Below, piece by piece: positions 54,001 through 57,000 of a stretch of 64,000 nt of DNA. The position numbers were made by a program. Position 1 is the first letter of the stretch. Each line of letters opens with the position of its first letter. Origin of the DNA: Escherichia coli O157:H7 (GTDB taxonomy: Bacteria; Pseudomonadota; Gammaproteobacteria; Enterobacterales; Enterobacteriaceae); assembly GCF_013167455.1 (NCBI RefSeq), contig NZ_CP038328.1; one strand, given 5' to 3'.

Positions 54001-57000
54001 ACCCACTGGTGGAGTGGATGTTGTTTCGCGCTTTCAGTAAGGATGCTGCCGGTGGCGCAGAATCGGGGCTGGCTGCGCAGCATTATCAGAGTTTTGTTGA
54101 GCAACTTGGGATCAAACAGGGGGCAGACAGTGCATTGTCTGCCCGTAAAAAAGTGTTTAACGGAGGTGGAGTGTGAGTGTTGTTGTTTCGGGGACGCTGA
54201 AATCTCCTGATGGTGAGGCGATATCAGGAGCAAATATTACCCTGACGGCGCTGACAGTTTCACCGGATGCGCTCAGCGGCACCAGTGCGTCGGCAGTGAC
54301 CCGTGAAGGTGGATATTACGGAATGACGATGGATCCGGGGGAGTATGCGGTTTCGGTGACGGTGAAAGGGAAGACTGCTGTCTACGGACGTGTGCGTATT
54401 GAGGGGACCGAAAGTACGGTGACGCTCAATATGCTGTTACGCCGCAGTCTTGTTGAGGTTAGCATACCCGGAGAACTGCTGACAGATTTCCGGCAGATAC
54501 AGAATAATGTGGCTGATGACCTTGCCACTATTCGTCGCCTGAATGAAGACACGGCGACAAAAAACACTCAGGCCACACAGTCAAAAGAAAGTGCAGCAGC
54601 CAGTGCGAAGAGTGCATCTGACAGTGCAAAGACGGCAACCAGCAGGGCGGCTGAAGCCGGACAAAAAGCGACTGATGCCACTGAGGCTGCGACCCGTGCA
54701 GTCACAGCAGCGGGGAATGCAGAGGAAAGCTCGACCCGTGCCGGAGAGTCTGAAAAAGCCGCCGGAGCTGATGCAGAAAAAGCCAGACAGCATGCTGAAA
54801 AGGCCAGGCTGGCGCAGGAGAGCGCCGGAGAGATCCTTAAGCGGGCAGAGGCTGCCACTGTCAGTGCTGAAGAGGCCAGACGTATGGCTGAGAATGCACG
54901 GGGGCCCCGGGGGCCCCGGGGGCCTCAGGGAGAAACTGGTCCGAAGGGGGATGTCGGTCCTAAAGGCGAAACAGGTCCAGTGGGCCCTCAAGGGCCCGCA
55001 GGGCCGAAAGGTGAGCGTGGTGACGTTGGTGCTCAGGGGGCTGTAGGGCCTGCTGGTCCGCGTGGTGAGAAGGGCGAACAGGGGGAGCGAGGACCGCAGG
55101 GAATACCAGGCCTGAAGGGGGATACCGGAGAGCGGGGGCCTAAAGGGGACCAGGGGGATATGGGGCCAAAAGGCGAGAAAGGTGATCCGGGAGGTCCTGC
55201 AGGCCCGCAAGGTCCTAAAGGCGAACGAGGAGAAGCCGGACCACAGGGACCGATGGGAGCACGAGGTGAGCGTGGGGAGACTGGCCCCCGAGGTGAACCT
55301 GGTCCTGCAGGTCCGAGAGGCGAACGAGGAGAGACCGGACCTCAGGGACCTCGTGGAGAGCCAGGTCCGGCAGGCAGCGCTGCAAATGTGGCTGATGCAA
55401 CGACGGCACAGAAGGGAATTGTGCAGTTAAGCAGCGCAACGGACAGTGATGATGAAACGAAGGCTGCCACCCCGAAAGCGGTGAAAGCGGCAATGGATGT
55501 GGCAAATGAAGCGAAAACAAAGGCAGAAGAGGCTGCAGCAGGAGGTGGTGTTCCCGGTCCGAAAGGAGATAAAGGGGACACGGGGCCAGCAGGTCCGGCT
55601 GGGCCGAAGGGTGATAAGGGAGAGCGCGGTGACACCGGCCCTGTCGGGGCAACCGGCGAACGGGGACCGGCAGGTGATGCTGGTCCGGCAGGCCCGCAGG
55701 GGCCGAAAGGTGACAGGGGAGAGCGGGGAGAGACCGGTCTGACGGGAAATGCAGGTCCACAGGGTCCAAAGGGAGATACCGGTGCGGCAGGCCCGGCAGG
55801 CCCACAGGGACCGAAAGGAGAAACAGGTGCGGCAGGCCCGGTGGGGGCGACCGGACCTCAGGGGCCGAAGGGCGACCCGGGGGAGACGCAAATACGGTTC
55901 CGTCTGGGGCCGGGAAACATTATTGAGACAAACAGCCATGGCTGGTTCCCGGATACAGATGGCGCACTCATCACCGGACTGACCTTTCTTGACCCCAAAG
56001 ATGCCACACGGGTTCAGGGTTTTTTTCAGCATTTGCAGGTCAGGTTTGGTGACGGGCCGTGGCAGGATGTCAAGGGGCTGGATGAAGTGGGCAGTGATAC
56101 AGGCAGAACAGGAGAATGACATGAATATTTTGAGAAAGCTTATGCAGAGTCTGTGCGGTTGCGGAAAGCATGATGACTGTGAAAACGGGCAGTCGCTTAC
56201 AGCACAACTGCGACTGGGACCGGCAGACATTCTGGAGTCAGATGAGAATGGCATTATTCCGGAGCAGGACAGGGTAATCACACAGGTGGTGATACTGGAT
56301 GCAGATAAAAAGCAGATACAGTGTGTGGTAAGACCGCTGCAAATCCTGCGTGCTGACGGGACGTGGGAAAATATTGGCGGGATGAAATAGCCGACAGCTT
56401 CACAAAAACCGGAGCCCGGCTCCGGTTTTTGTTGTCATGTATAGGGGGGGGTTATTAGAGAGTGAAGTAATAAACATGTTAATACGATGGAGTGAAGGAT
56501 GCCGTGTAATTCTGGTTCAAGAGTTTTTTATGCCGGAAAATCGCAGGATTATTCTGGATAGTAAAGAATCCTGGTTAATAATCTGTGATAGTCAGTTGGG
56601 CCATTTAATGCGCAGTATGTATCAGGGACGCCGTTTTATTCAGCTGAATCTGGAAAAATTGAAAGGGGTACATGATGTCGCCTTGCCAGTGAAATGGGAA
56701 TTCACACGAAGACAGTGAATAGCTTTCTGTATACGGGAATGGCGAAAAATGGACTGTATGGTGTGAGTGTGAAACATCTTGCGTGTGCGGAGTGATGCTT
56801 CTCGTTGCTACAGCGGCAATGATAATGCAGTGAAAAAAGGGGAGCAATATGCTCCCCCAAACCGAAAGAAAATTGCAATAATCAATGAAGTTATTTAGTC
56901 ATCATCAGAATGTCATGCAAGGCATTTTGTTTCAGTGATGCCGATCGCGATTTTAGCGAATTCCATCATAAATCCCCTGATTTTTAAGCCTGAAGCAGTC

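Follow-up and report, generated by a model that had tools for sequence, protein, structure and literature searches.

Lambdoid morons such as lom, bor, and cor (PMC4104026, citing Juhala et al. 2000 for the concept) are extra late genes that some relatives carry and others lack or replace at a fixed spot between conserved tail genes, occupy slots that are lower in GC content than their neighbors and bounded by hairpins, and insert independently. Hfq-dependent EHEC phage sRNAs (AgvB, AsxR, EcOnc, and Pas) are intergenic in Stx phages and lie beside terminator hairpins; as described in the Pas sRNA preprint, PasA, PasC, and PasD are found near lysis genes and PasB within a structural operon. EHEC prophages also carry small regulators (Pch/PerC, PsrA/B, and RgdR), the Psr proteins being AraC-like and RgdR 99 aa long. 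The NarL/FixJ regulators (FixJ, RcsB, EvgA, and DosR) follow a two-domain plan, with a receiver and an HTH, in about 200-210 aa.

The locus that we analyzed lies in a window of 64,000 nucleotides of Escherichia coli O157:H7 DNA (contig NZ_CP038328.1), in which a sequence-only reading had singled out a 93-aa ORF in an AT-rich segment between tail genes as a moron candidate, of the kind that is frequently a lysogenic-conversion or superinfection-exclusion gene expressed from its own promoter. The locus shares with the lambdoid morons its fixed spot, its lower GC content, and its bounding hairpins. In contrast to them, the copy in the window has decayed, showed no promoter, and probably came as the passenger of a tail-fiber cassette. 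We conclude that the ORF is probably a gene relic, a deleted and frameshifted accessory regulator that no longer functions, and, more tentatively, that the phenotype reported upon its deletion may arise in cis or from assay variation. The features of the region, in window coordinates, are as follows.

54173-56119: L0121, collagen-repeat tail fiber, upstream of the ORF
56121-56390, + strand: L0122/ECs1229, stand-alone 89-aa tail-fiber C-terminal domain gene, the last gene of the fiber cassette
56404-56436: symmetric intrinsic terminator (A5, 7-bp GC stem, 3-nt loop, U5)
56437-56718, + strand: the reported ORF, L0123, 93 aa (ATG at 56437, stop ending at 56718)
56443-56450: G8 homopolymer of variable length, within codons 3-5 of the 93-aa frame
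56485-56706: segment of 222 bp removed in Sp5 ΔORF69 (PMC5155283)
56495-56503: junction of deletion 1, one copy of the 9-bp repeat AAGGATGCC
56506-56664, + strand: core that survives in frame, the counterpart by homology of intact-protein residues 25-77
56671-56677: deletion-2 junction, where 112 nt (37 codons + 1 nt) are lost (alignments A3 and A4)
56676-56795, + strand: out-of-frame remnant, the last 39 regulator codons (CRLASEMGIHTKTVNSFLYTGMAKNGLYGVSVKHLACAE) and stop, the rest of the predicted LuxR-type HTH
56795-56833, + strand: 3' remnant of a small single-pass membrane-protein ORF, 12 codons (MLLVATAAMIMQ) and stop
56838-56858: GC-rich hairpin closing the former cassette, with a U-run on the − strand only
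56859-57012, + strand: leader of the essential tail gene L0124/ECs1232, outside the relic and the right border of the variable slot
57013 (PGAP) or 56935 (GenBank): start of the tail gene L0124/ECs1232, downstream of the ORF
Downstream of the ORF, with L0124: L0125, tail tip fiber

The host element of the ORF is a Shiga-toxin phage. The ORF corresponds to L0123 of phage 933W and to ECs1230/ORF69 of the Sakai prophage Sp5, and it is 100% identical to 933W L0123, to the same stretch of VT2-Sakai/Sp5, Min27, and Phi24B, and to about 150 further Stx phage records. All full-length copies are at least 99.3% identical, too alike for dN/dS, and a literature search under the locus tags L0123 and ECs1230 returned nothing relevant. 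The ORF does sit between tail genes as described, with L0121 and L0122 before it and L0124 and L0125 after it, in a gap of 622 bp (56391-57012). L0122 matched Phage_fiber_C of Pfam (E=5e-36) as well as phrog_576 ("tail fiber protein"), with PGAP coordinates in agreement, and is Sp5 ORF68, which is non-essential (PMC5155283); ORF70 (L0124) is essential for tail formation (PMC5155283). The segment is AT-rich as well, to a modest extent: GC content was 42.1% in the gap and 40.8% in the ORF itself vs. 54.9% upstream (50000-56390) and 50.8% downstream (57013-60000), and 9.7% of 622-bp stretches across the whole window were equally or more AT-rich, placing the gap at the 10th percentile.

The ORF had been described as having no recognizable motif. 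This holds for Pfam, NCBIfam, and PADLOC, where we found no match, and does not hold for homology: the ORF matched phrog_2014 (E=3e-58) and also phrog_6585, which has 156 positions, the latter in its N-terminal half, and it aligned with a family of E. coli proteins of 157-180 aa. Its core (56506-56664) corresponds to strands 2-4 of a predicted degenerate receiver-like domain (alignment A1; AF2 secondary structure), with 66% identity to the 157-aa L005 protein (E=4e-23, tblastn) and about 93% DNA identity to the L004 allele, which is carried by a lambdoid prophage. The C-terminal part of the family is also found in the window, in a frame different from that of L0123 and preceded by a stop codon, where 56676-56795 matched residues 119-157 of the L005 protein at 97% identity (E=5e-26, tblastn). 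The N-terminal core and the C-terminal 39 aa are 12 nt apart in the window rather than about 123 nt, and the alignment of the family proteins displays a gap between the two parts. The ORF is more than a chance ORF and less than a gene.

Three deletions separate the window copy from the intact loci. L004 contains two copies of AAGGATGCC, at 3120 and 3294, 174 bp apart, and with the 174 bp lost in deletion 1 went the leader, the start codon at L004 3233, and the ~20 codons that open the gene (MKLILATRNYYLEYGLRLLL). Deletion 2 shifts the frame, so that the ORF stops 13 codons on, at 56718; the codons that it removed (...HNAVRNxLWxWNxxARxLTMSEMVVMFGYxYRQLRP) represent a linker and the first predicted HTH helices. 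Deletion 3, of about 140 bp, took the 5' two-thirds of the small membrane-protein ORF that comes after the regulator in intact loci (alignment A4, L008 and L007); this ORF encodes 42 aa in L008 (MNKERCRTIGRKRYTTGAMCFMLFVWLGGVLALVATAAVVMQ, then stop), and GER2 has an annotated 60-aa CDS here. We also considered whether the intact 157-180 aa genes could instead have arisen by insertion into a 933W-like short form, which is unlikely because of the direct-repeat junction and the out-of-frame C-terminus.

The annotated starts of the ORF differ, at 56437 (93 aa), 56476 (80 aa; Sp5 ORF69/ECs1230 in the supplement of PMC5155283), and 56530 (62 aa; PGAP WP_001303606.1). Among eight phages and prophages that are at least 99% identical outside the G-run (alignment A5), the G-run region, which has an adjacent C in some phages, varied from 7 to about 12 nt, and in most of the eight this variation displaces the frame that begins at ATG 56437. 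The 93-aa frame starts fortuitously in former leader sequence. A weak Shine-Dalgarno-like AAGAG is found 6 nt upstream of ATG 56530, and at the opposite end the frameshift-derived C-terminal tail is shortened further in the EH0787 variant.

Intact parents of the ORF are carried by other elements. In L004 an intact ORF of 180 aa lies behind the identical terminator. In L008 and in phage GER2, whose copy is AVD99026, the L0124 homologue is immediately preceded by an intact gene of 156-166 aa, the small ORF, and the same hairpin. With 37 representatives among 1.84 billion proteins, the family is tiny, and it was seen only in E. coli; its intact members lie at prophage ends or on islands, and their neighbors are T3SS effector genes (NleG, EspJ), a YadA-like adhesin, and PerC homologues. 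The GC content of the intact alleles was 43.6% in L004, the closest, and 52-54% in L005 and L008. Our literature search found no characterized member of the intact family.

The AF2 model of an intact protein (pLDDT 89.8, pTM 0.85) has an N-terminal domain of alternating strands and helices followed by four helices. All top Foldseek matches in the PDB were NarL/FixJ-type regulators (FixJ, StyR, RcsB, EvgA, LiaR, DesR, VraR, and DosR; prob 0.9-0.99), at low TM-scores of 0.3-0.44, and the top viral structure matches were "response regulator" proteins. The sole sequence-profile matches in the PDB were to LuxR-type HTHs over LTMSEMVVMF...KTV and were marginal (E=0.035 to VqmA/GerE HTHs), and the intact relatives gave no match to Pfam (including the GerE and Response_reg models), NCBIfam, or PADLOC. 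The recognition helix is predicted to be KTVNTFLY. The intact relatives share an invariant Asp, D52, that closes predicted strand 3, the site of the phospho-acceptor in receivers; the acidic pair after strand 1 is absent, and there are four strands only. These predictions suggest that the intact parent combines a degenerate receiver-like domain with a LuxR-type HTH, the plan of the NarL/FixJ regulators within 157 aa rather than 200-210 aa. The window ORF keeps the D (ICDSQ) and lacks strand 1 and helix 1; in contrast to the NarL/FixJ regulators it has lost the HTH altogether, with no LuxR-type four-helix domain, as deletion 2 took the first predicted HTH helices and the rest is out of frame. 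An AF2 model of the 80-aa fragment from the single sequence (pLDDT 43) is too weak as evidence either way. The EHEC regulators Pch/PerC, PsrA/B, and RgdR resemble the intact family in being small and prophage-borne, whereas in sequence and fold class they are unrelated to it; RgdR has no similarity to the intact family, and identity with the RgdR or Psr prophage regulators was rejected, as they are different families.

The slot between the fiber cassette and the L0124 homologue varies in content. It holds the relic in 933W/Sp5, an intact regulator and the small membrane-protein ORF in GER2 and E. coli EC2, and a Gp38-like adhesin, the exclusion lipoprotein gene cor, and a small ORF in an O104:H4 Stx phage; in lambdoid prophages an intact copy lies behind the same tail-fiber cassette. 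The 181-aa slot protein of the O104:H4 phage, a Gp38_N adhesin, was considered as a relative of the regulator and rejected (hhalign prob 0.5%). The moron position is thereby borne out, in that short-tailed Stx phages have a fixed variable accessory slot in their tail cluster, and the AT-rich window sequence descends from a moron-like insert. An intact, fast-evolving orphan moron, serving in lysogenic conversion or superinfection exclusion and expressed by the lysogen from a promoter of its own, would fit the AT-richness, the hairpins on both sides, and the presence of cor in the slot of the O104:H4 relative. We nevertheless consider it highly improbable and largely refuted by the alignments: the sequence is a deleted, frameshifted version of a longer gene, its start is not conserved, and neither a promoter nor a match in PADLOC, Pfam, or NCBIfam was found for it. 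Neither the ORF nor the intact regulators nor the small ORF gave an exclusion or defense match in PADLOC, and cor, which occupies this slot solely in another phage, is unrelated. Since the ORF is the broken remnant of a regulator that is intact in related phages, it is to be read as an ordinary relic and not as a working lysogenic-conversion gene. The sequence-only reading had also held that a lack of conservation would count against it, and here the outcome was divided, in that conservation was found, though of a fragment in decay. The term "moron" is right historically; the present ORF is a relic.

Expression from a promoter of its own, the remaining part of that proposal, found no backing. 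A consensus scan, which may miss non-canonical promoters, reported one weak site, inside the ORF, vs. 2.0 expected by chance. The ancestral leader is missing from the window because deletion 1 removed it, and the same type of scan found no promoter in the lost segment as kept in L004, an uninformative result. A strong terminator, moreover, abuts the ATG, lying directly 3' of L0122 and directly 5' of the ORF. The RNA of 56391-56436 folds at -23.6 kcal/mol (z=-5.65; 0/200 shuffles equally stable), and an identical terminator element trails the Phage_fiber_C gene of L004; the consensus terminator scanner did not report the element at 56404-56436.

The hairpin at 56838-56858 registers as a terminator-like site on the − strand (consensus scan), folds at -16.8 (− strand) and -15.0 (+ strand) kcal/mol with z about -3.8 to -3.9, and is kept after the small ORF's stop in the 933W, EC2, and O104:H4 phages. 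Beyond it, the L0124 leader is 84-85% identical across three phage lineages over its first ~80 nt and ~100% identical over its last ~95 nt, and AAAGGA stands in front of the PGAP start ATG 57013. A hairpin retained in three lineages with its U-run on the − strand only, the nearly invariant stretch before L0124, and a slightly better fold of the whole gap than of shuffles (z=-2.05) could all suit a functional RNA, either a − strand sRNA or antisense RNA running from near the 5' end of L0124 to 56838-56858 or a structured + strand leader of L0124. Such an RNA is very unlikely, however, to be the functional element of the region. The consensus scan found no promoter-like site on the − strand, an Rfam search of 54000-59000 at E<=1 returned noise only (RsaOG, 27.5 bits vs. 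a gathering score of 50, terminator-driven), the stem shows no covariation because it is invariant, and the hairpin lies outside both the ORF and the ΔORF69 deletion. Furthermore, none of the 63 Hfq-CRAC candidate sRNAs of Sakai has a peak in or near the gap (Tree et al. 2014), which corresponds to Sakai 1287133-1287754 (NC_002695.2), a placement for which the genome version behind the EcOnc table may be offset; Sp5 holds eight of the 63, all outside the gap. The gap thus resembles the sites of the known EHEC phage sRNAs in being intergenic and beside a terminator hairpin, but none of the listed EcOnc peaks falls there, and Rfam gave no match there to AgvB, AsxR, or others.

The most direct published data on the region come from the Sp5 ΔORF69 mutant, whose primers ORF69_B1R and ORF69_B2F map to 56467-56484 and 56707-56727 (supplement, PMC5155283). 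The uncomplemented mutant was viable, not defective, and gave several-fold more plaques and lysogens, for which the authors proposed a possible regulatory function (PMC5155283). In addition, a CMAT immunoscreen of Phi24B lysogen cultures assigned clone CM15 to the homologous CDS. A micro-protein of 80 or 62 aa, receiver-like without the HTH, that damps infectious phage production or lysogenization in trans would explain both observations, and it would agree with the retention of a 62-80 aa CDS by PGAP and several annotators and with the AAGAG before ATG 56530. We regard this explanation as unlikely. The ΔORF69 phenotype is uncomplemented, the fragment lacks strand 1, helix 1, and everything past strand 4 of the parental fold, no promoter was found and the start is not conserved, and the last 13 residues derive from a frameshift and are shorter still in EH0787. 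The CM15 insert also contains, in an open frame, the final 54 codons of L0122, and in the L0123 frame four stops precede the ATG; the clone is explained equally well by the L0122 C-terminus and is ambiguous.

Returning to the relic, we propose the following history. The fiber cassette (the C-terminal part of the collagen-like fiber, the Phage_fiber_C gene, and the terminator) would have been exchanged between lambdoid prophages and short-tailed Stx phages, with an accessory cassette of the 157-180 aa regulator, the 42-60 aa membrane-protein ORF, and the closing hairpin riding behind it. In the 933W/Sp5 lineage, loss of the segment between the 9-bp direct repeats then removed the ribosome-binding site together with the leader, the start, and about 20 codons; deletion 2 cost the first predicted HTH helices and the frame, and deletion 3 most of the small ORF. 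What is left is a 93-aa ORF that runs from old leader across junction 1 into about 55 receiver-like core codons and ends in an out-of-frame stretch to the stop, and whose product would be unable to bind DNA as its ancestors presumably did. The region is probably transcribed passively within the Q-antiterminated late operon and probably yields no functional protein. The increased yield of ΔORF69 may, tentatively, come from assay variation or from the spacer, AT-rich and untranslated, acting in cis on the essential tail genes downstream of it, rather than from the loss of a regulator. Rho-dependent polarity is disfavored as the cis mechanism because the + strand RNA of the region is G-rich and C-poor (C 6-22%), and the cis reading is further weakened in that the deletion spares both hairpins.

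It is also conceivable, and in our judgment quite unlikely, that in 933W/Sp5-type Stx2 phages the production of infectious particles is held back by the truncated receiver-like peptide or by the 222-bp AT-rich stretch, as RNA or DNA. If so, such a brake would explain the extra plaques and lysogens of ΔORF69, and it could add to the disparity reported for these phages, in which about 1e8 packaged genomes per ml yield 1e6 PFU per ml at most.

For the window itself, the relic matters little. The "hypothetical protein" of 93, 80, or 62 aa in hundreds of Stx-phage and EHEC annotations would be a pseudogene fragment and not a virulence or exclusion candidate, and the published, unexplained phenotype of the region, a higher phage yield on deletion, becomes a clean question of cis vs. 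trans when the ORF is viewed as a relic. The intact parent family, by contrast with its remnant here, is a reasonable candidate for a further prophage-borne regulator of host or virulence genes, since its members are predicted to be compact receiver-like/LuxR-HTH proteins encoded beside genes for T3SS effectors, a YadA-like adhesin, and PerC homologues.

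Within a gap among tail genes lies a 93-aa ORF that is almost certainly the remnant of an accessory cassette that has suffered three deletions. The surrounding segment (window 56380-56940) recurs at 100% identity in phage 933W (AF125520 40163-40723), VT2-Sakai/Sp5, Min27, and Phi24B, as well as in many further Stx-converting phages. Its features, from upstream to downstream, are:

Upstream of the ORF: L0121, collagen-repeat tail fibre gene
56121-56390: L0122, between L0121 and the ORF, an 89-aa stand-alone Phage_fiber_C gene
56391-57012: non-coding gap containing the ORF, its right edge set by the PGAP start of L0124 (ATG 57013)
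56404-56436: strong, symmetric intrinsic terminator ending immediately 5' of the ATG (-23.6 kcal/mol, z=-5.65)
56437-56718: the reported ORF, 93 aa, equivalent to 933W L0123
Downstream of the ORF: L0124, then the tail tip fibre gene L0125

The sequence-only reading described an AT-rich 93-aa ORF amid tail genes, and this is correct, with a modest compositional signal: the gap has a GC content of 42.1%, versus 54.9% upstream and 50.8% downstream, and ~10% of equal-length windows across the 64 kb are equally AT-rich. The apparent AT-richness is exaggerated because the high-GC Gly-X-Y repeats of L0121 precede the gap. These collagen-like repeats (54800-55900) show a local GC of 0.65-0.70 and a strong purine skew. 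L0122 (56121-56390) stands free directly 3' of the L0121 fibre gene. L0121 also bears a phage tail fibre C-terminus domain, and a role as a reservoir for fibre variation has been suggested for L0122, which is dispensable in Sp5 (Mondal et al. 2016, PMC5155283).

PHROG profiles first indicated that this ORF is only part of a once longer gene: it matches an 80-position family and, in a 156-position family, the first half only. A megablast search against E. coli genomes showed the region to be mosaic, with query bases 1-297 found at ~93% identity in lambdoid prophages and bases 297-417 found elsewhere at 95% identity, at the 3' end of an annotated 157-aa gene (locus L005). When the L005 protein was compared with the window by tblastn, it gave two matches in different frames: residues 25-77 in the L0123 frame (66% identity, 56506-56664) and residues 119-157 in another frame (97% identity, 56676-56792, stop 56793-56795). 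The two matches are 12 nt apart in the window, versus ~123 nt expected from an intact gene, and the block absent from the protein alignment includes an invariant LTMSEMVVMFGY motif.

We analysed the junctions after aligning the window with intact loci. The first deletion spans 174 bp between two copies of AAGGATGCC, located at 3120 and 3294 in the lambdoid prophage locus L004, of which the window keeps one, at 56495-56503. The loss took with it the leader and the gene's start codon (L004 3233) together with its first ~20 codons (MKLILATRNYYLEYGLRLLL); ATG 56437 therefore lies in former untranslated leader just 3' of the terminator. The second deletion, of 112 nt (37 codons plus 1 nt) at about 56671-56677, took out the linker along with the first HTH helices; because it also shifted the frame, L0123 stops after 13 unrelated codons. 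The third, of about 140 bp, begins right behind the old stop codon. In intact loci, a small hydrophobic ORF comes next after the regulator (42 aa in the EC2 locus, L008; 60 aa annotated in GER2), and its 5' two-thirds were lost. Two features mark the far side of this deletion:

56795-56833: small-ORF remnant, last 12 codons
56838-56858: closing hairpin, which survives the deletion

All three deletions are common to the eight near-identical phages and prophages examined (8/8).

Intact members of the parent family (157-180 aa; L004 3233-3775, L018-L022, and L023-L027) occupy several contexts. In lambdoid prophages, a side-tail-fibre cassette with the same terminator lies 5' of the parent and type III secretion effector genes (NleG, EspJ) lie 3' of it; in other cases it lies at the prophage end, between a YadA-like adhesin and dinI. 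A further branch is found in an island adjoining hpaBC and PerC homologues. Phage GER2 and E. coli EC2 represent short-tailed Stx-type phages whose tail module resembles that of 933W; in them the parent occupies the exact slot of the relic, directly 5' of the conserved L0124 leader. In the O104:H4 Stx2a phage (2009EL-2071; L007 3055-3840), the same slot is filled by cor, which encodes an exclusion lipoprotein, together with a Gp38_N-type adhesin (Pfam E=1e-19). An unannotated small hydrophobic ORF and then the same hairpin follow there. Since contents differ among GER2/EC2, O104:H4, and 933W, the slot is a true variable accessory position, and the earlier assignment of the ORF to the accessory inserts of tail operons was well guessed. 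The relic was probably carried in as a passenger on an exchangeable fibre cassette.

The intact family is small and was found only in E. coli in the searches made. One search gave 44 clusters at E<=1e-3, and a profile search of 1.84 billion proteins gave 37 family representatives, many of them fragments. Pfam and NCBIfam models did not match the family. An AlphaFold2 model of the parent, built on a 13-sequence alignment, was confident (pLDDT 89.8, pTM 0.85); in its first part, four strands alternate with helices, and its C-terminal part consists of four helices. The top Foldseek matches in the PDB were all two-domain proteins of the NarL/FixJ type (FixJ, StyR, RcsB, EvgA, LiaR, DesR, VraR, DosR, and VpsT), with probabilities up to 0.99 and modest E-values and TM-scores; the best viral matches were "response regulator" proteins, and a profile search of PDB sequences returned only LuxR-type HTHs (VqmA, GerE; E ~0.04) on the LTMSEM...KTV segment. 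From the predicted structure, we infer that the parent was a compact LuxR-type transcription regulator, probably phosphorylation-independent. A relationship to RgdR, Psr, or Pch was considered and rejected, as these are unrelated. No characterised member was found in the searchable literature. In L004, the intact 180-aa ORF (3233-3775) was missed by PGAP, which annotates a partial pseudogene only.

The reading frame of the relic is itself unstable. Among the eight near-identical sequences, the G-run at 56443-56450 (joined in some phages by a neighbouring C) is between 7 and about 12 nt long, and in most cases this disrupts the frame that starts at ATG 56437; for this reason annotators differ on the start, giving 93 aa (933W, phi346), 80 aa (Sp5 ORF69, AU5Stx1, F723), or 62 aa (PGAP, ST2-8624, TL-2011c). 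In one variant the frameshifted tail meets an earlier stop. Full-length copies are all >=99.3% identical.

The proposal that the ORF is a working gene for lysogenic conversion or exclusion, expressed from a promoter of its own, is not supported for this triply deleted relic. A consensus scan detected a single weak promoter-like site, within the ORF, which is fewer than expected by chance. An Rfam search around the ORF returned nothing, and the Hfq-CRAC catalogue of Sakai has no peak in the gap. The whole gap folds slightly better than shuffles (z=-2.05) because of its two hairpins. The downstream hairpin, GGGGAGCAATATGCTCCCC (56838-56858, with equivalents in L007 and L008), has a U-run on the - strand only and, being preceded by an A-run, is terminator-like for that strand only; neither a - strand promoter nor signs of a transcript were found near it. 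It is kept directly 3' of the + strand small-ORF stop in three divergent phage lineages. The start of L0124 is GTG 56935 in GenBank versus ATG 57013 (preceded by AAAGGA) in PGAP, and the last ~95 nt ahead of 57013 are nearly invariant across lineages. L0124 matches phrog_511 ("internal virion protein", 862 positions) over positions 319-859 only, so homologues elsewhere may have about 318 extra N-terminal residues.

The lom homologue gives a moron signal better than that of the reported ORF. In this part of the window, AT-richness peaks (GC 0.32-0.34) ahead of the lom homologue (60910-61644; region 60700-61644). Expression of lom (clone CM18) occurs in lysogens, uncoupled from induction (Riley et al. 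2012, PMC3342100). The Hfq-CRAC peak EcOnc53 (Tree et al.; 1292386-1292438, - strand, Sakai coordinates of that study) lies at or just beyond the lom 3' end (1292386 in NC_002695.2).

Two published experiments touch the ORF. Riley et al. (PMC3342100) assigned CMAT clone CM15 (Phi24B 40137-40506) to CDS 40345-40626, which is the L0123 homologue. Mapped to the window, the insert opens with the final 54 codons of L0122 in an open frame and has four stop codons 5' of the ATG in the L0123 frame, and several other CMAT clones matched the fibre region (PMC3342100). The immunoreactivity of CM15 may therefore come from the fibre domain.

Mondal et al. (PMC5155283) deleted Sp5 ORF69 (ECs1230, the 80-aa version), and the mutant gave several-fold more plaques and lysogens. 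Their primers place the deletion at window 56485-56706. The tail needs the flanking, essential ORF67, ORF70, and ORF71, ORF68 is not essential, and complementation was limited to nine essential genes (PMC5155283). A micro-protein from the relic acting in trans is an improbable source of this phenotype. We favour the absence of any protein function, because the first strand, the first helix, and the whole DNA-binding domain are missing, there is no conserved start and no promoter, and the ORF ends in frameshift-derived residues. If the relic has no protein function, the phenotype needs an explanation in cis or is assay noise. In cis, for example, an untranslated AT-rich spacer might alter how strongly the message of the downstream tail genes is expressed or how stable it is. 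Rho-dependent polarity, the simplest such model, is disfavoured because the RNA is C-poor.

The finding is an ordinary one: in a mosaic phage genome, a passenger gene has decayed into a pseudogene. The ORF had been annotated before, and one study had even deleted it, but it had not been recognised as a relic. Only the uncharacterised family of intact regulators and the unexplained yield phenotype are of moderate interest.
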